IMG/VR virus record: IMGVR_UViG_2811995317_000003
Span: 1-64,000 of that record
DNA: 64,000 bases
Direction: 5' to 3' (one strand)
Origin: a virus
Taxonomy: Duplodnaviria; Caudoviricetes
Position 1 is the first letter of the stretch; each line of letters begins with the position of its first letter. The position numbers and the translations under genes are program-made. A model generated the notes under the pieces. That model saw nothing but the letters and a program-made list of their open reading frames with translations. It was not told the DNA's origin and searched no databases. Shown one piece after another: positions 1,366 to 62,927 of the stretch.

Positions 1366-1441
1366 GCCGATATAGCTCAGTTGGTAGAGCAGCGCATTCG
1401 TAATGCGAAGGTCGGAGGTTCGACTCCTCTTATCGGCACCA
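1366..1441 (+). tRNA. thrW: tRNA-Thr(CGT); 3' half supplied by prophage 1
   Basis: 76 nt GCCGATATAGCTCAG...TTCGTAA...TTCGACT...TATCGGCACCA; full cloverleaf, anticodon CGT. Confidence 0.97.
1396..1441 (+). repeat. attL core of prophage 1 (46-bp direct repeat)
   Basis: matches 41720-41765 at 44/46 positions; begins in the anticodon arm (ATTCGTAA). Confidence 0.95.
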
Positions 1442-1455
1442 CTAACCACGCGGGT

Positions 1456-2619
1456 TCACGCGATATTAACCAGTTCAGCAAAAGCGCCTTGTGCCATATT
1501 TGTGCCATTCCCCGCCAGGAATGAGTCGATTTGCATGGCATGCTGCGTCAGGTGATTCGGTGCCAGATGAGCATAACGCTGCACCATCTCGATACTTTCC
1601 CACCCGCCCATTTCCTGTAGCGCACTGAGTGGAACGCCGGACTGTACAAGCCAGCTTGCCCAGGTGTGCCGCAGGTCATGGAAGCGAAAATTTTCTATTC
1701 CCGCCCGCCTTAACGCTGCGCGCCATGCCGTGTTAGCATCAGACCGCATTTTGCGCACCGCCTTTGTTCTCGTTCCATCCGGGCGAACGGATGATTCAGT
1801 GTGAACAAAGACCCACCGGTTATGTTTCCCCAGTTGCTCCCGCAGCACCTTACAGGCCGATTCGTTCAGGGCGACCCCAATCGCCCTTCCTGCTTTCGCG
1901 TCCTCGGGGTGAATCCACGCAACCTTCCTCTGCATATCAATTTGCGACCACTCCAGATCAGTGATGTTTGACCTGCGCAGCCCTGTCGCCAGTGCAAAAA
2001 TAACAACTGGCTTCATGTGCTCGGGAAGCTCCCGGATCAGGTTCGCCGCCTCCTCTTTGGTTAGCCAGCGAATACGCTTATTTTTCGGCACCGGGCATTT
2101 GATGTTCGGCGCTTTGGCTATCCATCGCCATTCGTTGGCCGCGCATCGTAATAGCGCCCGGATGAAAGCAAGGTGCGTCGCCTTCGTCGCCAGCGACGCT
2201 GGTTTATCCTTAAATTCAGGAACCGGCTTACCTCTTCGCAGCAGGCTGTCCCGTTTAGCCTCCCAGTTCATTCGATGTTTGCGATTAACCATCGAACTCA
2301 CCGCCGACAAGATCCTGTCTTCAGTGATTGCTGACAGGTCCATTCCTTTGAAGTGCATCCTCCAGAATCCGATCCGGCTTTTGTCATCGTCCAGGCTTTT
2401 CTTGTGCTGCTTTTCGTTAAGCCAGCGAACGCACGCTTCATCGAACGTTCGCGGCTTAAACTCCCCCATCTTATCAACTCGCCATGCTTCAGCTTTCAGC
2501 TGATCATAGAGCTCCTGCGCTTGCCTTTTGTCCGTTGTCCCAAGAGACCGTCTAATTCGACTTCCACCAGGCGTAACGAAGTCGCAGTGCCACGTACCGG
2601 CACGTTGTTTGATTGACAT
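1456..2619 (-). CDS. int: tyrosine integrase (P22 family)
   Basis: 387 aa; [26 protein letters not shown] catalytic motifs; adjacent to attL. Confidence 0.97.
1489..1508 (+). repeat. putative arm-type Int site pair TTGTGCCAT x2, 11-bp spacing
   Basis: 1489-1497 and 1500-1508; same pair at 41595-41614 on the other att arm. Confidence 0.65.
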
Positions 2620-2843
2620 GCTTTTTCCTCCTGCACATCAACCGCATTCACGGGTTGATTGTGGATCGGGTTCTTCACTGCCGCAATACAGTCTGTTTTG
2701 CAGATCAGGTATGGGCTTTTTTTCTTATGTGGATTTTTTCGGGTAGCAGCCAGGCGACCGGACTTTATCCACTGGGCAATCGTGCCTTTATCCACTTTTA
2801 GGAAGGCGGCGGCCTCATCTCTGGTAAATACTTCTTCTTCCAT
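2496..2843 (-). CDS. xis: excisionase (HTH), overlapping int start
   Basis: [31 protein letters not shown]; same 124-nt overlap with int as in prophage 2. Confidence 0.85.
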
Positions 2844-2884
2844 CGATGTTCTCCAGTGGCCCCAGCCGGGGCCGTCATTGTTAT

Positions 2885-3130
2885 TCAGTGTGCCTGTGCT
2901 GGCAGGTTTCGAAGTTTACGAACGCCGATCATTGCTGTGGCGACATAGCTGGTGGCCCGGTTGACGACTTCGACGGTGACCTTCATGCCATCCACCTCAA
3001 CGGTGTAATTTGTCTGGTGTTTCTGCCTGCCGTAATCGCCATATTTTGCGTGGTGCGCCGCCAGCGCAACATCGCAAGCGCGGCGACCAATAGGTGATTG
3101 CTTACTGCGATTAATCAGCTTCATCATCAC
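2885..3130 (-). CDS. conserved phage protein (DUF4060-like)
   Basis: 81 aa in early left operon, coupled to dam. Confidence 0.6.
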   Translation of the reverse strand: MMMKLINRSKQSPIGRRACDVALAAHHAKYGDYGRQKHQTNYTVEVDGMKVTVEVVNRATSYVATAMIGVRKLRNLPAQAH

Positions 3131-3999
3131 TGCACTCCCAAAGTGGCTACGACATCACTCGCTGTTTCGCGGGTGCTGCCTTTGCTGGATATAGCCCGGC
3201 GAGCACTGACGCGGTGCAGCGTGAAGCCGTGCTGTTCGTAAAGTTCAATTACGCGCGGTGCGGTAGAATTGCTGATCACCACTTTCGCCCCCCGCTGGTG
3301 GGCTGCCACACAGCTTTCCGCAAGCTCTACCTGGCTATCCCATGAGAACCCACCAGCCGCGTAGTTAGTGAAACCAGCGGTGCCGGGAAGCGGTTCATAG
3401 GGCGGATCGCAGTAAACGACGTCACCATCACCAGCCAGTGCTAGCGTGCGCCTGAAGCCTGCATTCATGAATACGCATGCGTGAGATTTCCGCTTAAATG
3501 CCTTGATCTCTTCTTCCGGGAAATATGGCGCTTTATATTTCCCAAAGCCGACGTTAAAAAAACCGTCCAGGTTATAGCGAATCAGGCCGTTAAAGCAGTG
3601 CCGATTGAGGTAAAGGAATGCTGCTGCACGCTCGACCGCATCCAGCCGCTGCGTGTTGAATGCTTCACGAATTACCGTGTAGTTTTCGGCATCATTCAGA
3701 TGCCTGAATGCCTTCATTGCCTCATAGATCACTGAATCGGGGACCACCGCCAGCATCTGATACAGGTTAATCAGGTCAGCGTTGACGTCAGCCAGAAGGA
3801 AGCGTTCGTGCTTGTCTGAGTTAAGGAACACCGAGCCGCCACCCACAAAAGGCTCAATGAGTCGCTTTCCTGCGGGGATCAGGCGATCCAGTTCCGGCAG
3901 CAGCGAATATTTGCCGCCAGCCCATTTAAGGAATGGGCGCTGCCAAGTGCGCGGCTCTGTTTCCGTTTCTTGGCGCGATATCTCCGCACAATCACTCAT
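3127..3999 (-). CDS. dam: DNA adenine methylase, Dam/D12 family
   Basis: PFLKWAGGK, EPFVGGGSV, VYCDPPY motifs. Confidence 0.93.
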   Translation of the reverse strand: MSDCAEISRQETETEPRTWQRPFLKWAGGKYSLLPELDRLIPAGKRLIEPFVGGGSVFLNSDKHERFLLADVNADLINLYQMLAVVPDSVIYEAMKAFRHLNDAENYTVIREAFNTQRLDAVERAAAFLYLNRHCFNGLIRYNLDGFFNVGFGKYKAPYFPEEEIKAFKRKSHACVFMNAGFRRTLALAGDGDVVYCDPPYEPLPGTAGFTNYAAGGFSWDSQVELAESCVAAHQRGAKVVISNSTAPRVIELYEQHGFTLHRVSARRAISSKGSTRETASDVVATLGVQ

Positions 4000-8223: not shown

Positions 8224-8994
8224 CTATCTACGGTAACGCAAAACAGAGTACCAGAACACAAACCCGATGATTTCGACGTCACTTTCGTTTGCCTCTTCAT
8301 CGTCGTATTCACGATTGATGCTACGGATTAACACCTTTCCGCCAGGCTTGCGGTAAAGCTGTTTGATTCGCTTTAAATCGCCCTGGTTGATGGCGTACAA
8401 CTCACCGTCAACGATTCGTTTATTTCCGGTGTCAACTGCAACGGTTGCACCATCAGGAATTACTGGTTCCATGCTATCACCGGAAGCCGGGAAACACAGG
8501 ACACCAGAACCGTCAGTGCTGGCACCTACGCGCCGTAAAGTTGCTTTGGAAAAACGTAGCTTGAAACCGTTGTAATCTTCATCCGTGACGCGCCCATCCC
8601 CGCAGGCAAATTCGATATCCTTCAAGAACGGCACTTCAACCTCATCTTCTGGTAGAGGGGTATTTCTATCCCAAGATTCGACTGTACCCCACTCACTTAC
8701 GGGGGGGAGAGCATCATCAGACAATCGTTTTTCAGCGAGTTTTTCGCCTCGCCCATACTCAAGCCACTCTGGAGAAACCCCAAGCCATTTACTTAGAGCC
8801 ATGATGTTTGTCATGTCTGGGATTGCTGCGCCGTTAAGCCATTTCCAGATCCCAGGCTCAGAAACATCAATGCCTTGAGCTTTTAATGCGCTACGAATCC
8901 TGCCTGCGAGCCCACGCCCACCCACACCAGCATCAAGACACGCAGTGTGTAGTCGTTTGGAGAACTCTTCTTTTAAATCTTCTTTTTTAACCAT
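8224..8994 (-). CDS. cI: CI repressor (HTH plus S24 peptidase)
   Basis: HTH with WKWLNG; CG cleavage region, SGDSMEP catalytic Ser, IKQL region. Confidence 0.93.
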   Translation of the reverse strand: MVKKEDLKEEFSKRLHTACLDAGVGGRGLAGRIRSALKAQGIDVSEPGIWKWLNGAAIPDMTNIMALSKWLGVSPEWLEYGRGEKLAEKRLSDDALPPVSEWGTVESWDRNTPLPEDEVEVPFLKDIEFACGDGRVTDEDYNGFKLRFSKATLRRVGASTDGSGVLCFPASGDSMEPVIPDGATVAVDTGNKRIVDGELYAINQGDLKRIKQLYRKPGGKVLIRSINREYDDEEANESDVEIIGFVFWYSVLRYRR

Positions 8995-15196: not shown

Positions 15197-15485
15197 CTCC
15201 AATCAGCGAACCTACCGCAGCAAAAAATGGCTCGCCGCTGTCGGGCAGATCGAACAGTGCGTGTTATGCGGTTCATGGGGGACGCAGGTTGCGCACCGTA
15301 ACGAAGGCAAAGGCATGGGCCTGAAAGCCGATGATTGCGCCACGGCGGCGATCTGCGTTTGCTGCCACGACAGCATCGACAACGGGAGCAAGCTATCGCG
15401 CGACGAACGTCGCCAGCTGATGGACCGCGCCATCGTTCTGACCGTTATCCAGATCGCCCGCCTTGGGCTGGTGGTGCCAGCATGA
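15186..15485 (+). CDS. Cys-rich nin-region protein (HNH/DUF1364-like)
   Basis: CVLCG...AH...CVCCHDSIDNG. Confidence 0.7.
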   Translation: MRNNSNQRTYRSKKWLAAVGQIEQCVLCGSWGTQVAHRNEGKGMGLKADDCATAAICVCCHDSIDNGSKLSRDERRQLMDRAIVLTVIQIARLGLVVPA

Positions 15486-15964
15486 AAATTGACAAAACTG
15501 GACGATTGCTTAGCGATAACGCACTTAAAAATATGGGTGGCTCTGGGCGCTTCAAGGCTAAGCATGGGATGAAAAACACGCCGGAATACCGAGCGTGGAT
15601 TGATATGAAAAACAGGTGTTCTAATCCGAATGTAAGGTCTTATTCAAATTATGGAGGTAGGGGGATCACTGTCTGTAAAGAGTGGGTAGAGAGTTTTGAA
15701 GAATTCTTCAAATACGTCGGTCCTCGCCCAGATGGTTACAGTCTTGACAGGATTGACACCAATGGGAACTACGAGCCCGGAAACATTAGATGGGTTACGA
15801 ATCGCAGCCAACAAAATAATAAAAGAAATACCGTCTTTGTAATGTTTGATGGTCAAAAAATATCAGCCAGTGAGTATGCGAGAGCTGTAGGCATGAAGCC
15901 GGACACAGTACACGCAAGAATTCGTCGAGGCTTGAAGCTTGATGGGGCGATCATATGCAAGTGA
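15482..15964 (+). CDS. freestanding HNH-type homing endonuclease
   Basis: HG...EYRAWIDMKNRC...YGGRGITVC..W...SLDRIDTNGNYEPGNIRW; AT-rich; absent at the same junction in prophage 2. Confidence 0.85.
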   Translation: MKIDKTGRLLSDNALKNMGGSGRFKAKHGMKNTPEYRAWIDMKNRCSNPNVRSYSNYGGRGITVCKEWVESFEEFFKYVGPRPDGYSLDRIDTNGNYEPGNIRWVTNRSQQNNKRNTVFVMFDGQKISASEYARAVGMKPDTVHARIRRGLKLDGAIICK

Positions 15965-17115: not shown

Positions 17116-17190
17116 GGGTCAGAAGCACAGAGGTTGTGAGATCGGCTGTTAACCGATTGGTCGAAGGTTCGAATCCTTCCTGTCCCGCCA
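17116..17190 (+). tRNA. phage tRNA-Asn(GTT), degenerate
   Basis: anticodon arm ATCGG-CTGTTAA-CCGAT, T arm GAAGG-TTCGAAT-CCTTC, encoded CCA; U-U mismatch in acceptor stem, G-A in D stem. Confidence 0.8.
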
Positions 17191-17372: not shown

Positions 17373-17696
17373 ATGAAAATGCCATACAAACAAGATTTCA
17401 TCGCTGCGCTACTTGCCGCCAAGGAGCAGGGTATTGGTGCAATGCTGGCTTTTATCATGGCGTATCTGCGTGGTCGCTATAACGGCGGCGCGGTAACAAA
17501 AACGCTAATTGATGCGCTGATGTGCGCGATGATTGCCTGGTTCGTTCGTGACCTTCTGGACTTTATCGGCCTGAGCAGCAACCTCGCCTACATAGCCAGC
17601 GTCTTTATTGGGTACATCGGCACCGATTCGATCGGCAATATGATTAAAAAATTCGCAGCCAAAAAGGCGGGAGTTGACGATGCAAACCAGCCATGA
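17373..17696 (+). CDS. holin, lambda S type with dual start (107/105 aa)
   Basis: Met-Lys-Met start, three hydrophobic segments, basic C-terminus; hairpin over RBS. Confidence 0.93.
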
Positions 17697-18129
17697 AGGC
17701 ATTGCACTGATTAAAGGTTTTGAAGGTTGTCGCCTGACCGCATACCCCGATCCCGGCACTGGTGGTGCGCCGTGGACAATTGGCTATGGCTGGACCCATC
17801 CGGTTGACGGAAAGCCAGTAAAGCGCGGTATGACTATCGACCAGCAAACCGCTGACAGGCTTCTGAAAACAGGGCTTGTTGGTTATGAGAATGACGTGCT
17901 GAAAGTTGTCAGGGTGAAGCTGACACAAGGCCAGTTCGATGCCCTGGTGTCGTTCACGTATAACCTCGGTGCGCGGTCATTGTCGACATCGACTCTCCTG
18001 CGAAAACTCAACGCCGGAGATTACGCTGGTGCAGCCGATGAGTTCCTGCGCTGGAATAAAGCTGGTGGGAAGGTGCTGAATGGGCTGACACGTCGGCGGG
18101 AGGCAGAGCGAGCTCTGTTCCTGTCATGA
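17680..18129 (+). CDS. endolysin, GH24 lysozyme
   Basis: IKGFEG.RLTAYPD...[23 protein letters not shown]. Confidence 0.95.
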
Positions 18130-18593
18130 TTAGCGCACTGGTTAAGCGTTACTGGCTGCAGTTGCTGGTGCTGGCGTTAATCGGCGCACTGGCTTTCTTC
18201 GTGAACCACTACCGCGACAACGCCATCACTTACAGAGACCAGCGCGATAAGGCCACTGAGAAACTCCTCCTGGCGACCGCCACCATTAAAGACATGCAGA
18301 CCCGCCAGCGTGATGTCGCTGCACTGGATGCCAAATACACCGGAGAACTGGCTGATGCGAAAGAAACCATTGAGCGTCTGCATAGCGATGTCATTGCTGG
18401 CCGTAAGCGGCTGCAAGTCGCCGCCACCTGTGCAAAGTCAACGACCGGAGCCAGCAGCATGGGCGATGGAGAAAGCCCAAGACTTACAGCAGATGCTGAA
18501 CTCAATTATTACCGTCTCCGAAGTGGAATCGACAGGATAACCGCGCAGGTTAACTACCTGCAGGAATACATCAGGACGCAATGCCTGAAATAA
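18126..18593 (+). CDS. Rz: i-spanin Rz
   Basis: N-terminal [27 protein letters not shown]. Confidence 0.92.
18355..18540 (+). CDS. Rz1: o-spanin Rz1 (nested lipoprotein)
   Basis: alternate frame inside Rz; lipobox LAVSGC, Pro-rich. Confidence 0.85.
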
Positions 18594-18648: not shown

Positions 18649-18791
18649 ATGTCCGCAGTAAACGCGCATCTCACGCGCATATTAACGAGAGCCTTTCAGT
18701 AAGCGAGCCTGAGAAATGCCGTTATAGGTGGCGACCTCTCTCGGGCGGCTTTTCTGTGAGACAGGCTCACTTTCTAAAAGGTAAAGACGCT

Positions 18792-19310
18792 ATGAATAAT
18801 CCGTCAGTTATTCCGGCCTTCGACTTCCGCGAAATGGTCACGACCCTCGACAACAAGATAATCACCACATCACTCAAGGTGGCGGATTACTTTGGCAAGC
18901 GACACAAAGACGTTTTGCGTGCCATACGTAACCTGAAATGCTCCGATGACTTCACCCAGCGCAATTTTGCGCCCATTGATTTCATTGATAAAAATGGCGA
19001 TGTTCAGCCTATGTATAACATCACCCGCGACGGATGCATGATGCTAGTGATGGGATTCACTGGCAAAACAGCTGCCGCAGTGAAGGAGTGTTACATCAAT
19101 GCCTTCAACTGGATGGCCGAGCAGCTAAACCGGCGCATGGCGATGGGTGAAGAATTGCAGCATCGCTACGCCATCAAAGAAACGCGCTCAAAGCTGAAAG
19201 GCACGATCGGAAGCCGTTTGATGAACGAGCGGAAGAAAGAGAAGCGCGTCCTGGAGCTCGAACATGAGCACATCATGCAGGTAACGCAGCCGGAATTACT
19301 TATTGGCTGA
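18792..19310 (+). CDS. Rha family regulatory protein
   Basis: TTSLKVADYFGKRHKDVLRAI...NF...MY..TRDG.MMLVMGFTG. Confidence 0.88.
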   Translation: MNNPSVIPAFDFREMVTTLDNKIITTSLKVADYFGKRHKDVLRAIRNLKCSDDFTQRNFAPIDFIDKNGDVQPMYNITRDGCMMLVMGFTGKTAAAVKECYINAFNWMAEQLNRRMAMGEELQHRYAIKETRSKLKGTIGSRLMNERKKEKRVLELEHEHIMQVTQPELLIG

Positions 19311-19370
19311 TCGCGGCATTACAGAAGCCCTTCATTGAGGGGCTTCGATAATGGAGCACTGGAATTATTC

Positions 19371-41719: not shown

Positions 41720-41765
41720 ATTCGTAATGCGAAGGTCGTAGGTTCGACTCCTATTATCGGCACCA
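41720..41765 (+). repeat. att junction: attR of prophage 1 and attL of prophage 2
   Basis: 3' half of thrW: ATTCGTAATGCGAAGGTCGTAGGTTCGACTCCTATTATCGGCACCA. Confidence 0.95.
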
Positions 41766-41779
41766 GAAAATTCAATCAG

Positions 41780-42943
41780 TTACGTGTTATTCGTACCCTC
41801 CTTGTTTTCCATATGGGACAGATTTGGGACACAATCGCCAAAAATTGAGTCGATTTGCTTGGCATGTTCGGTCAGATGATTTGGTGCCAGGTGTGCATAC
41901 CGGCGTACCATTTCGATAGACTCCCACCCGCCCATTTCCTGCAGTACAGATATCGGTACTCCGGCCTGAACTAACCAACTTGCCCAGGTGTGTCTCAGAT
42001 CGTGAAATCTGAAATCCTCAATACCAGCTCGCTTTAATGCTGCCCGCCAGGCGGTGTTGGCGTCATACCGCATTTTCCTCACAGCTGGCGCTTTCGTTCC
42101 GTCCGGCTTAGTGCAGCTCTCCTTATAGACGAACACCCATTTGTGGTGACTTCCTATTTGTCTTTTCAGCACGCGACATGCAGTATCATTCAGTGCCACG
42201 CCAATGGCCTGATTCGATTTGCTCTGCTCCGGGTGTATCCATGCCACCCGGCGCTGCATGTCAATCTGCTGCCACTCCAGATTGATGATGTTCGACCGAC
42301 GAAGTCCTGTAGCCAGCGCAAACTCGACAACAGACTTTAGCGGCTCCGGGCATTCATCAATCAGCCTTTTAGCCTCGTGCGGCTCCAGCCAACGGATACG
42401 CTTATTCTTTGGCTGGGGAACCTTGACGATAGGGGCCTTATCCAGCATCTTCCATTCACGTTCTGCCGCACGGAGAAGCGCCTTGATAAATGAAAGGTGT
42501 GTGGCCTTTGTCGCCACCGATGCCGGGCGCGGAACGTAGTCAGGCGTTTCCTTGCCTTTCTTCGTTTGCGCAGCGTTCATCAGCTTCCAGTTTTCCTCAT
42601 GCCTTCGGTTGGTCATCTTCTGTATGGCGGCGTAGATCCGCGATTCAGTGATGTCCTTCAGTTGCATGCCGGCAAAGTGCTGGAGCCAGAATCCGATCCG
42701 GCTCTTATCATCATCCAGCGACTTCTTGTGCGCCTTCTCCTCAAGCCACCTGACACAGGCATCCTCAAATATCATGTCAGGAACCTCACCGAGCTTGCTC
42801 ACCCGCCAGGCTTCGGCCTTTAGCTTGTCATGGAGTTCCGTGGCCTGCCTTTTGTCCTTTGTCCCAAGAGACTGCTTAAATCTTTTGCCGTCCGGCAATG
42901 TGAAGCTGGCGTACCAGGTTTCACCTCTGCGAAAGAGTGACAT
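41780..42943 (-). CDS. int: tyrosine integrase, P22 Int-like
   Basis: [17 protein letters not shown] start (ATG 42943), 387 aa, RHDLRH/Y motifs. Confidence 0.96.
41814..41831 (+). repeat. arm-type Int site pair TGGGACA x2, 11-bp spacing
   Basis: 41814-41820 and 41825-41831; resembles recalled P22 arm motif TGGGAC. Confidence 0.65.
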
Positions 42944-43170
42944 ATTAATTCCTCTCGTATGCCATCGCCCGCGCTCACCTGGACAGTATGCAGCGGTGAC
43001 TTGAGCGCCGCAATGCAGGCCTGTCGGGTAGTGAGGTAAGGGGATTTTGGTTTGGATGGGTCTTTGCGGGTTGCCTGCAGTCTGCCGGTGCGGATCCAGT
43101 TCGCAGCTGTTGGTCTGGATATGCCCAGCATTGCGCAGGCCTGATTGAGAGTGATGCTGTATTGTTCCAC
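42820..43170 (-). CDS. xis: excisionase, P22 Xis-like
   Basis: 116 aa; [22 protein letters not shown]. Confidence 0.9.
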
Positions 43171-43277
43171 TGCGTTCTCCAGGCAAAAAAATGCCCTCGC
43201 AATGGAGGGCTGAAAGGGGGATAACGTGGCAGTGCTTTCGCACCCAATAGCCAGCTCATAACTGGCTATCAGTTGCG

Positions 43278-46095: not shown

Positions 46096-46782
46096 CTATC
46101 TCCACTGTTCCCCGAACGTGAATCCGATCTCCGCCAGCGCCTCGTCCATCTTCTCAATAAACTCCGGCACCATTTCGTTGAAATCGGACATGTACTGCGG
46201 ATCCCGCTCAACGACGACGTGGTGAATACCTTCGCGTTTCATGCGCGGGTCGTAGTTGGCAAAAAACCAGGCGTCTTTCCCGGTCACCCACATGCTGTAC
46301 TGCACCTGGGCCATGTACGCGGACTTGATGGCTTCGAAACCGCCAAGGCGGAATTTCATGAAGTCTCGGGAGGTGAACGGGCATTTCAGTTCGAGGCCGA
46401 AATTATTACTGCAAAGGCCGTCAGGGGAGCACGCGGTGCGCATGCTCTCGTCACGGAACAGGATCGGAGACTCCGTGACTTTCACGTCGGTGGTGAACTC
46501 GAAGAGAGTGCGGGCGTCTTCCTCGTACTGCTTGCCCCAAGCGAGAGCCTTGGCGTTAACCTCTGGCGCCACGCCGGTGCATACCTCGGCGAGCAGCGTG
46601 TGGAAGTAGGACATTTTCATGTCTGTCCATTTGGTGCCAGATCGAGGCTTGGAAATGACGTTGTGAGCGTCAGAGGCAGTAATAACTCCGAGTCTCGCCC
46701 TTGCCCATGTCTCGCTGCCTTGCTCAATTTGTGCAATTGGCCCAAATATTTGCTCAAATTTAATGAGCCACGTGTTATCCAT
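46096..46782 (-). CDS. exo: lambda-type exonuclease (YqaJ family)
   Basis: [27 protein letters not shown]. Confidence 0.93.
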
Positions 46783-47395
46783 ATTTCCTCTCCTTACGGC
46801 AGTTGGCTCTTGGCGGGATGTTTATGCCTCTATTGTTGTAGCCGTGACACCATTTGTGGATGGTTGCTGATTTCACGCCAAAATGATTCGCCGCGGCTCC
46901 GGCGCTTTCAAAACGCAACCCATCAACAAACCAGTAAAACGATGTGCTTCTGTTTTCCGCCTGTTTGGTAACCGTTGCCCATCTGCAATTGTCTTTTGAA
47001 TACGGGCCTTCATTGTTCTTCCGATCTAGCTGATGCTTAGGCGTAGGAGGTGGCCCCATATCTTCAAGAAATAGCTCGAACGTCAGCCACCTTTCGCAGA
47101 TGCCGCGCTTACTGTATTTTTCGAAGTCTTTGTTGTTCGGGTTCGTGCAGCGGTTTTTCATTCCGCTCCAAATCCTGTAAACGCGGGTATTGCGCTGGCC
47201 GTGAGTAGCGTTTTTTCCTGTCATGCATCCGCAGCTGCTTATTGAATTGTTTTTAAGCTGATTTGCGGCTCTATAGCAGGAATTACCGCACACACAAAGG
47301 CATAGATACATCCTTCTACCTCTCAGCATGTGCGAGTATTCTTTGACGGTTAAGTGCCCATATTTTTCACCGGGCATAAGCGAATTGGCGTTCAT
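46775..47395 (-). CDS. freestanding HNH-type homing endonuclease
   Basis: C.C.CG, SCGC, HG...[31 protein letters not shown]; separates recT and exo. Confidence 0.85.
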
Positions 47396-48309
47396 GCTGC
47401 CGCCTTCTTCTTGAGGAAGCCTAGGGCCTTAACTGCCTCGGCTTGGGTAAGCTCGGATGAATCGCGAATATCACGACGGAAAATTTGCGAACAGACTGGG
47501 AGCAGGTTTTCTTCCCATGTCTTATCCATTGCGATAAGGACGTCGTTAATCTCCTTGATAATTTCGTCCCCTGCTGGGGTTACATCGCGTTCTGGCTGGC
47601 GTTCTGCTGAGAAGTTGATACCTTCCTCACCCTCGGTATTAACATGGTCGATGGCGGCGTCCAGGCGCTCACGTCGAGGCCAGTATTTTGCTGCCTGCTT
47701 CACGACCGTCTTGAGGATCATCTGCTCTTCATCGGTGACCCAGGGACACTTCTTGCTGTTGTCAGATTTGAACTTCTTCCACGCTTCAGACCGGTCACGG
47801 ATGGAGTAGATGGCATCGATGCGCATCGTATGAGTGAGGTAATCACCATCGTCAGTTTTTACAGTTACATACGCCCCTACGATGTCTCCGCGCTGCTCTT
47901 CGGTATCAAAATCGTTGTAGATATGGATCGGCGGCTTATCGAGCCCTTCCCGGCGGAACTGGTCGTTTCTTCGAACAATAGCCGACTGGCACCACTTAAT
48001 GGCGCCAGACTGCTGCGCGATATGCATCAGGCCCATGTAACTGATGTCGAGGCAAATAGCCCCTTTACGCGGAACCAGGTAAGCCAGCTTCTGAGCTGGG
48101 TTTAGCGAAATACCGATAGCCGCAACGTTGATGATCGCGTTCTGTGTGCTGGTCTGGTTCTGGAATGCAACTTTCGCGAGGTAGTCGTTGTTCTGAAATA
48201 GCTGGATGGCGAACTGACTTTCCTTCGCCCACACCATCCGCTCGTCAGTGGCCGCCTTAATGAAAAGCGGCTCCTGTTGTTTGACGAAATCAACAAGGGT
48301 TAAGCTCAT
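47392..48309 (-). CDS. RecT/Bet-family single-strand annealing protein
   Basis: GISLNP...[29 protein letters not shown]. Confidence 0.88.
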
Positions 48310-48318
48310 AGTCCCTCC

Positions 48319-48600
48319 TTAAAATGGGCAGATTGGATGAAGGCGATCCCACTCTTCTTCGGCGCGGTCGTAACAGATGCGTGTGACATAGTCGTTATAG
48401 GCTTCCTCTGCCTTTTCACCGACTAGTGCCATTTGCGCTTCTTTTGGGAGAAACAGGCTACTCATTTGCAAAGCATATTTCGGGAACATGGCGATCAGTT
48501 CTTTCGCTCTGTCGTCGATCCACTTCTCTTTCTCGTCGGTGAGCTGCTGCTCAACCCACCGCCGATCTTCGATGCGGTCGTAAGTGAGGTATGCGTTCAT
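48319..48600 (-). CDS. putative Gam-like host nuclease inhibitor
   Basis: MNAY..DRIE...W start and position upstream of recT/exo. Confidence 0.45.
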   Translation of the reverse strand: MNAYLTYDRIEDRRWVEQQLTDEKEKWIDDRAKELIAMFPKYALQMSSLFLPKEAQMALVGEKAEEAYNDYVTRICYDRAEEEWDRLHPICPF

Positions 48601-49106
48601 AAATTCTCCGGTTTTCTTTCTTCATGAACGGCATGTTTGCCGTGCATGCGCTCTCTTGCTGCAACGACAACGGCCCTGGCCTCATTAAGGTCGGTGAAAT
48701 TTCCAAGGTGGTGTTTTTTGCCGTCTATAGAGCAGCGCGCATGCCAGCGTTTATCTTTCTTGTTCCAATAAACGCCTTTTACGCCGCTTGTGTTATTTTT
48801 TGGAGAGAGCTTATTGAGTTGATTAATCCAGTGAGGAACGTCTCTGAGGTTGCATAACCGGTTATCAGTTCTGATGCCGTTTATGTGGTCTATTTCGTGC
48901 TCGGGCCATGAACCATAGGAATAAAACCATGCAAGCCGGTGGCACAAATATCTTTCGTGGTCGATTGAGATACGAAGATAGCCAAAGGGATTTAATGATC
49001 CGGCTATAGTTCCAGAAACCATTCCACCGGCTGTTTTGAGCCTGGTGAAGATTCCTGTCTCTGCATCGTAGTGAAACAATTCCTTTAACCTCTGAATTGA
49101 AAGCAT
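48597..49106 (-). CDS. HNH endonuclease with C-terminal AP2-like domain
   Basis: HRLAW, IDHINGIRTDNRLCNLR, NTSGVKGV.W. Confidence 0.9.
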   Translation of the reverse strand: MLSIQRLKELFHYDAETGIFTRLKTAGGMVSGTIAGSLNPFGYLRISIDHERYLCHRLAWFYSYGSWPEHEIDHINGIRTDNRLCNLRDVPHWINQLNKLSPKNNTSGVKGVYWNKKDKRWHARCSIDGKKHHLGNFTDLNEARAVVVAARERMHGKHAVHEERKPENL

Positions 49107-51040: not shown

Positions 51041-51748
51041 TTATCCGAACCGACGATAATCTATCGACTGACGAAGCAAGACCTTGGCTACCACGTGAAG
51101 CTGGTCTTCGTCAGCTTCTTCAATATGCCAGCGCTCGTATATCGGATTGTCAGATATGACAACTAGCTTGTCTTTCTGCATCTGCAGGCGTTTTACATGA
51201 AGGGTTCTGCCATAGACGAAAACATAAATTCCGTCAGCATCAAAATGGTTAACGGACACATCAACGAAGATCTCGTCACCAGGATTGATAGTCCCCTCCA
51301 TGCTGTCGCCACTAACAGTGATGACTTTTATATGGTCTTGAGGCCTGCCATTAAATAAAGTTCTGGCGTGCTCAGTTGTGTACTCAATAGCCCTGACCTT
51401 CTCAATGAATTCATTGGAAATCATAGTCCCCGGCCCAGCACTCGCTTGAACATCTAATACGTCCACTCGATAAGAGTCGGACACCTTAGAGGCGTGGTTA
51501 GGTGTGATACCGTCCTCTGTAGCGTACCCATGAAGGTAAGCAGCTGTAGTCCCCAGCACCGATGCTAGCAACTCCATCTTCTCCTTTCTTGGAACCGATT
51601 CGCCATTAAACCACTTACTTACGGCCTTCGGTGTGAGTTTCATTCTAGCAGCTAGATCAGCCTGCCTGCCATGTTGTGGAAGTCCCGCCTTATCACAGGC
51701 CAGCGCAAGCCTTAGCGAGAATTTTTCACGCTCATTTTGTTGAACCAT
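51041..51748 (-). CDS. cI: CI repressor, HK022-like, 235 aa
   Basis: MVQQNEREKFS..LALACDKAGLP.HGRQADLA; ASAGPG, GDSM, VKRL; strongly resembles recalled HK022 CI. Confidence 0.92.
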   Translation of the reverse strand: MVQQNEREKFSLRLALACDKAGLPQHGRQADLAARMKLTPKAVSKWFNGESVPRKEKMELLASVLGTTAAYLHGYATEDGITPNHASKVSDSYRVDVLDVQASAGPGTMISNEFIEKVRAIEYTTEHARTLFNGRPQDHIKVITVSGDSMEGTINPGDEIFVDVSVNHFDADGIYVFVYGRTLHVKRLQMQKDKLVVISDNPIYERWHIEEADEDQLHVVAKVLLRQSIDYRRFG

Positions 51749-51813
51749 CAGTTCAACTATATCTGTACTTGACTGTACTATCAGTTCCGTCATAATATGA
51801 ACTACAAGTTCAC
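51740..51813 (+). promoter_or_regulatory. oR (three 17-bp operators) and pR of prophage 2
   Basis: TTGAACCATCAGTTCAA 51740, CTGTACTATCAGTTCCG 51773, ATGAACTACAAGTTCAC 51797; TTGACT-N16-CATAAT. Confidence 0.8.
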
Positions 51814-51821
51814 CACTGGAG

Positions 51822-52058
51822 ATGCAAATGAACGAAGTTACGTTTGGACACGTCATTAAATCCGTTCGTGTGTCTGTTGTGGCTGAGGTTTGCGGACTTA
51901 CGCCCAAGGCCATTTACAAATGGATTGAGCGTGGTTCTCTGCCGCGTACCGAGTTTACAGGAGAAACCGAGTACGCGGACAAGATCGCCAAAGCATCAGG
52001 CGGCAAGTATTCAGCAGCACAGATTCGCCGTATCGGTAAGCAGAAATTAGTCATGTAA
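51822..52058 (+). CDS. cro: Cro
   Basis: VAEVCGLTPKAIYKWIERGSLPRTE. Confidence 0.85.
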   Translation: MQMNEVTFGHVIKSVRVSVVAEVCGLTPKAIYKWIERGSLPRTEFTGETEYADKIAKASGGKYSAAQIRRIGKQKLVM

Positions 52059-56600: not shown

Positions 56601-56956
56601 AAATCTACGACATAACACCAATCGGAAAGCCTCGCATGACCCGCGCGGATAAGTGGAAGCAGCGCCCACCTGTAATGCGTTATCGCGCTTTTTGCGATGA
56701 GGTCCGCCTGCGCAAGCTGACCATGCATGAATCAGGATCACATGTGACATTCGTCCTACCAATGCCACCAAGCTGGAGTAAGAAGAAACGAGCGGAGTTC
56801 GCCGGGAAGCCCCACCAGGCCAAGCCAGACTGCGACAACATGCTGAAGGCCCTGATGGATGCGCTTTATGAGGATGATGCTCACATCTGGGATTGCCGCA
56901 TCACAAAGGTCTGGGGAGAGAAGGGGCAGATCATCATCGGAGAGTGCGCGCCGTGA
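56597..56956 (+). CDS. rusA: RusA-like resolvase
   Basis: KPDCDNMLKALMDAL. Confidence 0.88.
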   Translation: MKIYDITPIGKPRMTRADKWKQRPPVMRYRAFCDEVRLRKLTMHESGSHVTFVLPMPPSWSKKKRAEFAGKPHQAKPDCDNMLKALMDALYEDDAHIWDCRITKVWGEKGQIIIGECAP

Positions 56957-57063
56957 CCAGAGACGAGATAACCCGGTACCAGGCAGAAAGCGTTAAGCGC
57001 GCCAGCCTACCGCCAGTAGCAAAGCACAGCCAGACCAAACAACCTAAGAAGGAAGCAGCATGA
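56953..57063 (+). CDS. 36-aa coupled peptide
   Basis: GTGA and ATGA overlaps; resembles first 16 aa of prophage 1 Q. Confidence 0.45.
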   Translation: MTRDEITRYQAESVKRASLPPVAKHSQTKQPKKEAA

Positions 57064-57683
57064 GAAAGCTCACACCAATTTACTCCATGGTCAACTTTGT
57101 CGATGACGCTCACTTCCGCCGTGTCTGGAAGCATCCCAAAAAGACCATAACCCCAAAGCAACGGGCATGGGTGCAGTACATGCTGACTGTGTGGGGTCGC
57201 ATTAACCGTGGCGATGATTCTCCTGCCGGTGCCATTAACGTCATTGGCCGATTGATGATCCGCAGCCAATGGAGTCCTGATATGGGTGGACACATCGAGA
57301 GGATGGTCAACTGGCTTTATAGCGATGAAGGAGGGGCGCTGAGAGGTGAGGCGCTTTATAAAAAAGCTCGCGAACTGGTTATCCCTCAGTCATCAGCCAG
57401 CAACATCATCGCTCTCGCCAAAGAATCAGATGATGCCGCATTCGTAGAAAAAGTGATGGTTAAGCTGTTTCACCGGGAAAGCCCAGTCCGCGATTATGCA
57501 ATTAAACGTTATTGTGAGCGCAACTGCACTCAACATATCGCTCAGGCAATGAGCAGAGTAACCGGCGTGGATGTGCAGCAGTGCCGCCGCCGGGTCGTGT
57601 GGTGCGAGAAGGTTTTTGAATCAGAACTCTTTTATGCCTTACAACGTGAGATGGAGAAAGAAAACGAACTTCAGGCCACTTAA
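57060..57683 (+). CDS. late antiterminator Q-like
   Basis: position before pR'; homologous to 16314-16997. Confidence 0.75.
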   Translation: MRKLTPIYSMVNFVDDAHFRRVWKHPKKTITPKQRAWVQYMLTVWGRINRGDDSPAGAINVIGRLMIRSQWSPDMGGHIERMVNWLYSDEGGALRGEALYKKARELVIPQSSASNIIALAKESDDAAFVEKVMVKLFHRESPVRDYAIKRYCERNCTQHIAQAMSRVTGVDVQQCRRRVVWCEKVFESELFYALQREMEKENELQAT

Positions 57684-57882
57684 TTAGAAAATATTTATCT
57701 GAAAGTGTTGATTTGGCGAAATGAAAGTGCATAATTCAGTATATGCTCGGACGTCAAAGGCGAAAGAGCGCGGTGATGAAGTGCAAGATGACAGCGCTCA
57801 TGAATCGGGGACATCGAAAGCCCAAAAGCTGAATTGTGTGGCGACAGCAAAAACGCGACTTGAGCCATCACCAATAATTTAG

Positions 57883-57910
57883 AGCCACTGGTTAACGCCG
57901 GTGGCTTTTT
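57883..57910 (+). terminator. tR'-like terminator
   Basis: AGCCACTGG-TTAACG-CCGGTGGCT followed by U tract. Confidence 0.85.
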
Positions 57911-58229
57911 CATTTCTGCATAACGGAAATCGCTTTGAGTATGTGACGGCATCCCGGTGAGACCAGGTACATTTCCCTGGCGCGGCAAAGCGATCCCCGT
58001 TGTGGTGAATGTCCTGATGGCGTCGTAAAGCGATAGCCATGAATGCCGGATAGCAGCACCGGTCACCACACCCAAACCCACTACCTGGGACCCTTCGGCC
58101 AGAGAGCCGACATTGCCTTACCCTCACATTGCCAGCCTGTCGCTGGCTTTTTTATTTGCGATGTCCGGTCGTTGTTTCCTGGCATCCTTCCACTCTACAC
58201 AAACAGCACCCCGTTCTTTCGGAGGTGAT

Positions 58230-58547
58230 ATGGCTAAACGTATGCAAGATAAAGAAAGCATTGCCGGAGTGTCATGGTTGATTGTCCTTGCTCTGTCATG
58301 CTGGGGCGGCCTGGTCCGATACCTTATTGACGTTAAGCAGAACAAAGCCGCCTGGAGCTGGGTCAATGCGCTGGCGCAAATTGCAGTGTCCGGCTTTACC
58401 GGTCTTATTGGTGGCCTGATTAGCGTTGAAAGCGGGCTTAGCCTTTACATGATCCTGGTTACTTCTGGTATCAGCGGGGCGATGGGGTCCGTGGCACTGA
58501 CGTACTTCTGGGAACGGCTGACGGGGATGAAGAATGCAAACCAGTGA
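58230..58547 (+). CDS. holin (three TM segments, possible dual start M-A-K-R-M)
   Basis: WGGLVRYL, SGFTG..GG, GAMGS; precedes lysozyme. Confidence 0.85.
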   Translation: MAKRMQDKESIAGVSWLIVLALSCWGGLVRYLIDVKQNKAAWSWVNALAQIAVSGFTGLIGGLISVESGLSLYMILVTSGISGAMGSVALTYFWERLTGMKNANQ

Positions 58548-58977
58548 TAAATGCATTGCCATGATCAAGCAGTTCGAAGGCTGCAAACTCACAGCGTACC
58601 AGGACAGCGTCGGAGTGTGGACGATCGGATACGGATGGACTCAGCCTGTCGACGGTAAACCGATCCGCGCAGGGATGACGATTAAGCAGGAAACGGCAGA
58701 GCGTTTGCTGAAGACAGGGCTGGTCAGTTACGAAAGCGATGTGTCCCGCCTGGTTAAAGTCGGGCTGACTCAGGGGCAATTCGATGCTCTGGTGTCGTTC
58801 ACGTATAACCTCGGCGCCAGGTCATTGTCGACATCGACTCTCCTGCGAAAACTCAACGCCGGTGATTACGCTGGCGCTGCCGATGAGTTCCTGCGCTGGA
58901 ATAAAGCTGGTGGAAAAGTCCTGAATGGGCTGACCCGTCGGCGTGAGGCGGAGCGCGATTTATTTCTTGGGCAATGA
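58534..58977 (+). CDS. endolysin, GH24 lysozyme
   Basis: IKQFEG.KLTAYQDSVGVWTIGYG; near-identical 3' half to prophage 1 lysozyme. Confidence 0.95.
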   Translation: MQTSDKCIAMIKQFEGCKLTAYQDSVGVWTIGYGWTQPVDGKPIRAGMTIKQETAERLLKTGLVSYESDVSRLVKVGLTQGQFDALVSFTYNLGARSLSTSTLLRKLNAGDYAGAADEFLRWNKAGGKVLNGLTRRREAERDLFLGQ

Positions 58978-59462
58978 GGTGTCTTGTGAAAGAACTTTCT
59001 GATTACCTTGAAATAAATAATAGATCGCCAAGTGGTCTTGTATGGAAGAAATCGCCTGGCGCGAAGATTAATGCCGGAGACCCAGCATTTACGACAGTTA
59101 CACGTTCAGGTTATTACGCTGGTAAGTTCTGCGGTGCGCGATTGTCAGCCCACGTGGTGGTTTTCTTCTTACATAATGGGTTTCTACCAAAAGGTGAGGT
59201 TGACCATATTGATGGGGATAGGACCAACAATGATCCGAAAAACCTAAGAGATGTCAGCCGCTCTGTCAACGCGCAAAACAGGAAGAAAGCAAAGGGCTAC
59301 AGCTTTCATAAGCGTATCAATAAGTATATTGCCACCATAAATGAACCTGGAACTGGTAAGCGTTTGCATCTCGGTTACTTTGAAAATGAGATTGATGCAA
59401 GGAACGCCTACCTTACTGCCAAAAGGTCATTACACATTGGTTACGTAGGAGAGCATTCGTGA
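58974..59462 (+). CDS. freestanding HNH endonuclease between lysozyme and Rz
   Basis: [26 protein letters not shown]2-like HLGYF..E..A; absent in prophage 1. Confidence 0.9.
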
Positions 59463-59929
59463 TTAGCGCACTGGTTAAGCATTACTGGCTGCAGTTGCTG
59501 GTGGTGGCGTTAATCGGCGTGCTGGCGTTCTTCGTGAACCACTACCGCGACAACGCCATCACTTACAGAGACCAGCGCGATAAGGCCACTGAGAAACTCC
59601 TCCTGGCGACCGCCACCATTAAAGACATGCAGACCCGCCAGCGTGATGTCGCTGCACTGGATGCCAAATACACGAAGGAATTAGCAGATGCGAATGCTGA
59701 GAATAACAGGCTTCGTGCTGATGTTGTCGCTGGTAAGCGTCGGCTGCAAATCGCCGCCACCTGCTCCAAAGACGAAACCACCGGATCCTCCGGCCTGGTT
59801 GATGGCTCAAGCCCTCGACTTACAGCAGATGCTGAACTCAATTATTGGCGTCTCAGAGACGGGATCGCCGCCGTCACAAAGCAACTGACCGGCCTGCAGG
59901 AATACGTTCGGACTCAGTGCCTGAAATAA
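59459..59929 (+). CDS. Rz: i-spanin Rz
   Basis: 146 bp identical to prophage 1 Rz. Confidence 0.92.
59688..59888 (+). CDS. Rz1: o-spanin Rz1
   Basis: nested; lipobox VSVGC, Pro-rich. Confidence 0.85.
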
Positions 59930-60024
59930 TACGGAGGTGAGCATGTATTCGTATGGCGAAAGACCGCCTACGCATTCCACACTGCAATGCCGGGGTCATG
60001 CATCCGTTACCACATGAATAACCA

Positions 60025-60328
60025 AGCCTCGCAATAGCGGGGCTTTTTACTAACCGAGGAAACAAAATGTCCGTTCGCGCTAAATTCCGCTGTCACTTCA
60101 TTCAGAAAGCAGAAGACGATTCACACCGCACAATCCACATGAGTCCTGTAACTGCAGATACCACCGAAAACAAGTCGTGGTCAAAGTACACACCTGGCGG
60201 CCAGCTGCAGATGGTCATCTCGAACCCTGCAGCGTTCGAACACTTCGAGCAAGGCAAAGAATACTTCATCGACATACAACCGGCGAAGTAATAAAGAAAT
60301 TTCCAGCCTCGCAATAGCGGGGCTTTTT
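60025..60328 (+). repeat. 24-bp direct repeat (terminator hairpin) flanking one gene
   Basis: AGCCTCGCAATAGCGGGGCTTTTT at 60025-60048 and 60305-60328. Confidence 0.9.
60067..60291 (+). CDS. conserved phage hypothetical protein
   Basis: GAGG RBS; MSVRAKF...ENKSWSKYTPGGQL...NPAA. Confidence 0.8.
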   Translation: MSVRAKFRCHFIQKAEDDSHRTIHMSPVTADTTENKSWSKYTPGGQLQMVISNPAAFEHFEQGKEYFIDIQPAK

Positions 60329-60459
60329 CATGCGCATCTCACGCGCACATCAACGAGAGCCTTTCAGTAAGCGAGCCTGAGAAATGCCGTATATGGTGGC
60401 GACCATCTCGGGGCGGCTTTTCTGTGCGAACAGGCTCATCTTTCTAAAGGAACATCGCC

Positions 60460-62378: not shown

Positions 62379-62927
62379 ATGGCAAAGCTCACCGACAAAC
62401 AAGAGCTGTTTGCCCGTGAGTTCATAGTTGACCTCAATGCCACTCAGGCAGCCATAAGGGCGGGCTACAGCGAGAAGTCATCCCGCAACCAGGGCGCTAG
62501 GATGATGGCAAATGATGACATTTTAGACCGCATTGCTGAGCTTAAGGCCGAGCGCAATGAGCAAGTAGGCGTAGATGCAACTTACGTATTGCGACGTCTC
62601 ACGGAAATCGACCAGATGGACGTGCTCGACATCCTGCTTGCCAATGGCGAGCTTAAGCCGATTAAAGACTGGCCGAAAGTATGGCGAACAACGCTATCAG
62701 GAATGGATGTTGTCGAAATGGCATCTGCAGACAGCGCCGCCCTACTGAAGAAAATCAAGTGGCCTGACAAGGTGAAAAACCTTGAGCTGCTAGGCAAGCA
62801 CGTAAATGTGCAGGCGTTTAAAGAAAACATCAAAACAGAAATCAGCGGTGCTGGCGGTGGTCCAATCGTTACTACCGATATGTCACCTGAAGAAGCTGCA
62901 GAGAAATACAAAGACCTCATGGGATAA
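62379..62927 (+). CDS. terminase small subunit
   Basis: LTDKQELFAREFIVDLNATQAAIRAGYS, KVKNLELLGKH. Confidence 0.92.
   Translation: MAKLTDKQELFAREFIVDLNATQAAIRAGYSEKSSRNQGARMMANDDILDRIAELKAERNEQVGVDATYVLRRLTEIDQMDVLDILLANGELKPIKDWPKVWRTTLSGMDVVEMASADSAALLKKIKWPDKVKNLELLGKHVNVQAFKENIKTEISGAGGGPIVTTDMSPEEAAEKYKDLMG

Follow-up and report, generated by a model that had tools for sequence, protein, structure and literature searches.

We analysed the first 64 kb (hereafter the window) of an 87.4-kb IMG/VR 'provirus' record, IMGVR_UViG_2811995317_000003, which holds two lambdoid prophages in tandem (prophage 1, ~1441-41765; prophage 2, from 41765 on; see below). The lysis cassette of prophage 2 carries a small additional gene, referred to here as HNH-AP2, located between the genes for lysozyme (endolysin) and the i-spanin Rz. 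The positions of this gene and of the other features are given in Table 1. The ATG at the beginning of its open reading frame (ORF), at position 58974, overlaps the lysozyme stop codon (ATGA), and at the other end its TGA and the Rz GTG (59459) overlap. In prophage 1 the lysozyme gene ends with the codons GCT CTG TTC CTG TCA TGA (18112-18129), and this stop is directly overlapped by the Rz ATG at 18126. Both halves of the claim made for this junction in a first-pass annotation, an HNH gene in prophage 2 and an empty allele in prophage 1, were borne out: the quoted strings were located, the ORF product matched an HNH domain, the uninterrupted ATGA overlap could be read in prophage 1, and junctions of this empty type turned out to be widespread.

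Pairwise alignment of the two cassettes showed a clean gap in prophage 1, where 13 nt (18113-18125) stand in place of 501 nt of prophage 2 (58958-59458), a net difference of 488 nt; the alignment breaks after GAGCG(A/C)G. About 17 nt of the lysozyme end were replaced. In prophage 2 this gene ends with GAT TTA TTT CTT GGG CAA TGA (58957-58977), and direct reading agreed with the earlier description of a recoded end, DLFLGQ versus ALFLS in prophage 1. The recoded stretch corresponds to the last six codons (58957-58974): the Leu-Phe-Leu codons are all synonymously altered, from CTG TTC CTG to TTA TTT CTT, and are followed by a new Gly-Gln-stop terminus. The flanks had also been called near-identical, which is correct next to the junction, where the two prophages share 91.7% identity over 180 bp on the left and 97.2% over 215 bp on the right (with a perfect tract of 146 bp inside the latter), and incorrect farther away, where identity is ~60%.

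The insert appears to bring its own translational signals. The ATG at 58974 is a less likely start than the in-frame GTG at 58986 (158 aa), which has GAGG ahead of it at 58976-58979: a 92% variant of the gene in contig L038 has TTG where the ATG stands and a relative that is 86% identical (P0002) begins at the GTG position. At the other end, AGGAG at 59447-59451, within the 3' end of the HNH gene and 7 nt upstream of the Rz GTG, is a possible ribosome-binding site for Rz. With signals of its own at both ends, the insert would restore those of the genes it separates and leave the lysis cassette intact. The guanine-cytosine content of the ORF is 43.8%, as compared with 55.7% for lysozyme and 55.0% for Rz. 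In a consensus scan the Q gene was followed closely by a late-promoter-like site and by a hairpin resembling a strong terminator, and no promoter- or terminator-like sites were found between lysozyme and Rz; the ORF probably belongs to the Q-dependent late transcript. No Rfam intron family matched the region 57600-60400 at E <= 1, and an intron is unnecessary here since the ORF sits between two complete genes with overlapping stop and start codons.

The ORF product matched Pfam HNH_3 (PF13392) at residues 59-100 with 55 bits against a cut-off of 24.8, and with 56.5 bits in a six-frame search. It also matched PHROG families named 'HNH endonuclease' (up to 7e-48, phrog_99), and its sole PADLOC match was the homing endonuclease model 'HEase'. 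The only sequence match in the PDB was the homing endonuclease I-HmuI, whose VDHKDG...NLR...N motif aligned with VDHIDG...NLR...N of our protein; residues D77, H78, N90, N99 and N102 were invariant among 35 homologues. The AlphaFold (AF2) model (predicted local distance difference test, pLDDT, 91.7) has two domains. Residues 5-105 of the model superimposed on I-HmuI (1U3E) with Z 9.2 and a root mean square deviation (rmsd) of 2.4 Å over 89 residues; Foldseek gave I-HmuI a probability of 1.00, but with an E value of 0.012. Residues 106-162 superimposed on the AP2 domain of AtERF1 (1GCC; Z 7.9, rmsd 2.0 Å over 56 residues) and on other AP2/ERF structures (7WQ5, Z 7.8; 7ET4, Z 7.4), the plant AP2/ERF domains as a set giving an rmsd of ~2 Å over 54-57 residues. 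The Pfam AP2 domain (PF00847) was present in the relatives P0006, P0010 and P0013, and scored below the cut-off (24.4 vs 33.3 bits) in a paralogue encoded elsewhere in prophage 2 (48597-49106); we make the AP2 call because of the predicted fold together with the relatives that score. The protein has two cysteines only, hence no zinc site. From its sequence and model we conclude that it combines an N-terminal I-HmuI-like HNH domain with a C-terminal AP2-type DNA-binding domain, and that the predicted catalytic residues are intact. The ratio of nonsynonymous to synonymous substitution rates (dN/dS) between the ORF and its 92% variant was 0.19.

Nine further IMG/VR contigs and two from metagenomes encode the same protein at 99-100% identity, and a third metagenome contig (L038) encodes the 92% variant. 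In all 12 of these contigs the gene lies between lysozyme and Rz with base-identical junctions, the insert measuring 500 nt by the same landmarks. Chance is ruled out by this recurrence of one insertion taken with the 55-bit HNH_3 score. Across the eleven close copies the gene showed 0-2 differences in 489 nt, against ~8-10% in the adjoining lysozyme and up to 50% in Rz. Among the occupied contigs, divergence of the lysozyme flanks ranges over 5-12%, identity of the Rz flanks drops to ~50% within 250 bp, and the holins and downstream modules are largely unrelated. Empty junctions were far more numerous: 13 occupied ones were counted vs at least 119 empty ones in viral contigs, with the same insertion point to the base (about one in ten sampled junctions occupied), and the junction was empty in 37/37 complete E. 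coli genomes and 5/5 phage records that matched the flanks. The recoded lysozyme end is found solely with the HNH gene: when a native lysozyme ending in this way was searched for, every match was an occupied contig apart from L244, a chance match in DNA of another kind. More distant relatives of the protein include P0002, a sequence named from Enterobacter asburiae, and P0003 (73% identical), and the best phage matches reached 44-49% identity over >90% of the length. None of the collections searched (phages, plasmid-independent E. coli, species representatives) contained a member as close as those in the occupied contigs, and the species-representative genomes gave only an unrelated planctomycete match.

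We compared the flanks of occupied and empty alleles. Almost all occupied alleles had their closest flank relative among the empty alleles. For example, the lysozyme gene of L005 is 98.8% identical to that of the empty L234 and 94.4% identical to its nearest occupied allele, and the Rz gene of L011 is 100% identical to that of the empty L196 vs 82% to the nearest occupied allele. The occupied L007 and the empty L229 differ, besides the recoded end and the HNH gene, by a single internal mismatch in a lysozyme flank of ~430 nt. In 30-bp bins, the occupied-occupied, empty-empty and occupied-empty identities could not be told apart, save for the first bin on the left of the insert (0.973 vs 0.903); to the right there was no occupied/empty difference from the first base on. 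A co-conversion gradient, i.e., an identity rising towards the HNH gene in occupied alleles, was considered and rejected, as empty alleles show the same profile; the rise near the junction is explained by the background conservation that the lysis genes carry there. A near-invariant unit of 0.5 kb set in flanks with the full diversity of the empty population implies many recent recombination events at its borders, and together these comparisons are good evidence that the HNH gene spread recently across diverse cassettes.

L038 carries the 92% variant in the same junction (2052-3459), next to a lysozyme of the prophage-1-like lineage and upstream of a module that is 94% identical to prophage 1 at 18705-19353; this context indicates that phages of the prophage 1 type have acquired the HNH element in nature. 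P0004, a protein from a 4.7-Mb contig, is a frameshifted copy of 108 aa that shows no difference as far as the NNDPK motif and loses the frame after it, apparently a gene in decay on a bacterial chromosome.

The pattern is what one would expect if a homing endonuclease gene (HEG) were active now or had been so until very recently. We consider the ORF at 58974/58986-59462 to be, most probably, a free-standing HEG, for which we infer both the cleavage activity and the target. The mobile unit of ~500 bp would comprise the recoded last codons of lysozyme, the ribosome-binding site of the HEG, and the AGGAG and stop/start overlap for Rz. Having no promoter of its own, the HEG would depend on the Q-dependent late operon, so that it would not be expressed in the lysogen until the prophage is induced. 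The enzyme would then bind the uninterrupted lysozyme/Rz junction of a related phage replicating in the same cell and nick it, or cut it; a nick could become a break through replication, and repair would copy the HEG from the occupied genome by means of the conserved arms (lysozyme 3' end and Rz 5' end). Nicking is presumed because the relatives of I-HmuI are nicking enzymes: I-HmuI and its kin nick site-specifically, on one strand and a few nt from the insertion site (PMC3428280).

The empty junction of prophage 1 is a candidate for such a target. Its 60-mer is also present in 9/95 sampled empty viral contigs, in Citrobacter phage Omnitron and in E. coli TOK-001. Every occupied allele has one and the same variant of the 27 bp to the left of the insertion, which is the commonest among empty sites too (20/95) and from which prophage 1 differs at 4 positions; the sharing of this variant could reflect co-conversion or a target preference. 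The arms of 180 and 215 bp that the two prophages have in common would be long enough for repair by recombination. The occupied allele has a split site, with differences at 7 of the 13 replaced bases and in the three synonymous codons; the splitting together with the recoding of the left half may protect it. The enzyme could be active and yet leave an uncut site beside it in one chromosome, provided that it is made only after induction.

Several points weigh against an HEG. PF00847 gave no match to the lysis-cassette protein at E <= 0.01, and I-HmuI, the nearest characterised enzyme, is only ~25% identical to it. The promoter and terminator calls rest on consensus matches. The occupied contigs possibly come from a narrow host set, and their independence is assured in part. 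In addition, ordinary recombination in the conserved arms of lambdoid junctions could shuffle the flanks alike without any cutting. This last point is the basis of an alternative that we regard as improbable, in which the gene encodes an accessory, 'moron'-like nuclease, beneficial or neutral and non-homing, that is moved by ordinary recombination of lambdoid lysis modules and may act on host or competitor DNA. Recombination at this place is indeed expected, as the junction arms are conserved among many cassettes, and purifying selection on the ORF would suit a useful nuclease; Barth et al. point out that bioinformatics alone cannot separate homing from domesticated nucleases (PMC10448857). 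Passive exchange of modules fits less well with borders that match the gene ends exactly and with zero flank linkage beyond ~30 bp, and a private recoded stretch that destroys the junction, a low occupancy and a frameshifted copy are better accounted for by the invade-and-decay cycle of an HEG.

There is a slimmer chance that the gene is a dead relic, i.e., a once-mobile HEG that no longer cuts and is passively carried. The uncut empty site in the same chromosome could be taken as a sign of such inactivity, but the placement in the late operon already accounts for it in the lysogen; moreover, the catalytic D77, H78, N99 and N102 are intact in a confident model, and near-identical copies in a dozen backgrounds argue for very recent movement. 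Hardly credible is a packaging helper like HK97 gp74, an HNH protein working with terminase at cos: two reports describe HNH genes near terminases as common in phages (PMC3592412; PMC10448857) and the terminase small subunit gene lies 2.9 kb downstream (62379-62927), but our protein is of another family (no PF01844 match in the whole record, two cysteines only), several unrelated genes separate it from the terminase, and its gene is missing from most phages with the same cassette and is found beside both prophage-1-like and prophage-2-like downstream modules.

As an HEG, the gene can be compared with several known systems. Its product resembles I-HmuI of the Bacillus phage SPO1 (1U3E), I-HmuII, I-BasI, I-TwoI and I-PfoP3I in its N-terminal DNA-binding sheet, its HNH core and the lack of a zinc-binding cysteine set. 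The genes of that group are carried by group I introns that interrupt DNA polymerase or nrdE genes, whereas that of prophage 2 is free-standing, and the AP2 domain takes the place of the C-terminal helical and helix-turn-helix (HTH) domains of I-HmuI. The combination of HNH and AP2 is a recognised family of phage homing endonucleases (PMC10448857, which credits Magnani et al. 2004 with noting it). The phage HNH-AP2 genes of PHROG 99 have the same two-domain architecture and size and occur, as here, sporadically between essential genes; examples have been annotated in T7-like phages of Klebsiella, Pectobacterium and Salmonella and in phages of Xanthomonas (PMC2248197). Most of the known ones belong to virulent phages and other loci, whereas the prophage 2 lineage keeps to the lysozyme/Rz junction in temperate lambdoid prophages.

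Free-standing HEGs are well understood in virulent phages, e.g., T4. MobE and the other seg and mob HEGs of T4 are likewise wedged between conserved genes and spread by break-induced gene conversion, with co-conversion of the flanks and with target polymorphism protecting the donor (PMC2790892, PMC2988022). The Mob proteins have a zinc finger where the prophage 2 protein has AP2, and the co-conversion tracts of T4 are long, whereas the linkage of our HEG ends within ~30 bp. Unlike the T4 genes, the HEG belongs to a temperate phage and would be expressed from a late lysis operon. To our knowledge, HEG activity in temperate phages, and between prophages in one cell, is little documented, and our literature searches returned no report of the prophage 2 HNH lineage or of homing between co-resident prophages. 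The element is a well-known kind of mobile gene, recently spreading, and its mechanism is not new. It does provide a compact testable case, with a mobile unit defined to the base and a near-isogenic occupied/empty pair (L007/L229), population evidence for a very recent sweep with almost no co-conversion, and, at two loci, a donor and a candidate recipient site within a single lysogen. Such a gene would also explain one way in which mosaic breakpoints arise in lambdoid lysis cassettes.

The second of these loci is the rusA junction, at which the occupancy is reversed. In prophage 1 a nuclease-like gene (15482-15964) begins with an ATG that overlaps the stop of a Cys-rich gene and ends over the start of rusA (ATG 15955), the N-terminus of which is recoded; in the alignment, the junction in prophage 2 (~56604-56639) is empty, the stop of the Cys-rich gene overlapping the rusA ATG. 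No Pfam nuclease domain was found in the protein of prophage 1. Its family comprises 3200 matches and has an invariant Arg, within an LDRID motif, at the position of the HNH histidine. The nearest fold to its model (pLDDT 87.9) was PacI, an atypical HNH restriction enzyme, with a moderate Z of 6.2; the C-terminal HTH resembles that of I-TevI (Z 4.1), and the match of its profile to an HNH alignment was weak (probability 5.7%). The product is plausibly a nuclease of a non-canonical type. Prophage 2 has two further genes of this sort. One, between recT and a YqaJ-type exonuclease gene, encodes a protein with a C-terminal HTH that is 37% identical to the prophage 1 nuclease-like protein, and is probably another homing-type gene. 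The other is the paralogue mentioned above, a second HNH_3 and AP2 gene whose product is only 27-33% identical to the lysis-cassette protein.

The first-pass annotation had joined the two junctions into a reciprocal homing pair, in which each prophage carries an endonuclease whose uninterrupted site lies in the other. As sequence this stands at both loci; the neat one-for-one symmetry does not, given the two additional genes of prophage 2 and the Arg in place of His in the prophage 1 protein. On co-induction the cell might become a reciprocal two-locus gene-drive arena, with the HNH protein of prophage 2 nicking the lysozyme/Rz junction and the PacI-like nuclease of prophage 1 cutting the rusA junction, an outcome that we think rather unlikely. 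Were it true, recombinants occupied at both loci should be over-represented in the progeny, or else one phage should partly exclude the other, and it would amount to a documented conflict between co-resident temperate phages mediated by homing endonucleases.

Table 1 Positions of the HNH-AP2 gene, the two lysis-cassette junctions and other features of the tandem prophages
Feature	Coordinates	Strand	Evidence or remarks
tRNA-Thr(CGT)	1366-1441		After host proA, left end of window
Tyrosine integrase, prophage 1	1456-2619	-	After first tRNA copy
cI-type repressor, prophage 1	8224-8994	-	HTH and S24 peptidase domains
Nuclease-like gene, prophage 1	15482-15964	+	160 codons; phrog_3377 'HNH endonuclease' 8e-49
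Lysozyme, prophage 1	17680-18129	+	Uninterrupted allele; Pfam Phage_lysozyme 2.8e-47
Empty junction, prophage 1	18112-18137	+	GCTCTGTTCCTGTC-ATGA-TTAGCGCA; candidate target site
Rz, prophage 1	18126-18593	+	Pfam Phage_lysis 5.5e-39
tRNA-Thr 3'-end repeat	41739-41765	+	2 mismatches, 0 expected by chance; boundary of tandem prophages
Tyrosine integrase, prophage 2	41780-43243	-	After second tRNA copy
YqaJ-type exonuclease gene, prophage 2	46096-46782
206-aa ORF, prophage 2	46775-47395	-	Between recT and YqaJ-type exonuclease gene
recT, prophage 2	47392-48309
Second HNH_3 + AP2 gene, prophage 2	48597-49106	-	169 aa; PF13392 49 bits; phrog_99 1.6e-68; early-left region
cI-type repressor, prophage 2	51041-51913	-	HTH and S24 peptidase domains
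Q gene	57060-57683		Q-like phrog_753 2.3e-61
Late-promoter-like site	57708-57735	+	Consensus scan
Terminator-like hairpin	57881-57908	+	Consensus scan; strong
Holin (LydA type), prophage 2	58113-58547	+	Pfam Phage_holin_3_3 3.8e-21, residues 56-133
Lysozyme (endolysin), prophage 2	58534-58977	+	147 aa; Pfam Phage_lysozyme 1.4e-50
HNH-AP2 gene, prophage 2	58974/58986-59462	+	162/158 codons; Pfam HNH_3 55 bits
Rz (i-spanin), prophage 2	59459-59929	+	GTG start; Pfam Phage_lysis 2.7e-41
Rz1-like lipoprotein frame within Rz, prophage 2	59688-59888	+	Signal peptide ends LVSVGC; lipobox inspection only

The division of the record into two prophages is made because the 3' end of the tRNA-Thr gene is repeated and each copy is followed by an integrase gene (Table 1). 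No third copy of this 3' end was found in the 87-kb record with up to 3 mismatches allowed. The proA and tRNA-Thr genes at the left end are 80% identical to those of E. coli, which suggests a different enterobacterial genus. No DNA similarity between the prophages was found across the cI repressor region; from the repressor sequences they are probably heteroimmune, yet both SOS-inducible. RecT and the YqaJ exonuclease are encoded by prophage 2 itself. The start of the prophage 2 holin is probably downstream of the listed TTG. Both Rz genes contain a perfect direct repeat of 146 bp (18195-18340 = 59528-59673), the copies being ~41.3 kb apart. We considered this tract as a sign of exchange between the prophages and rejected it, since the allele is a common one, identical in 27/109 sampled junctions; the tandem prophages might still recombine with each other through this repeat. 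Finally, a tRNA-Asn(GTT) gene (17116-17190, positive strand) is located inside prophage 1, directly upstream of the holin gene, and related E. coli prophages (AW1.7, TOK-001) have a tRNA-Asn at the equivalent position.

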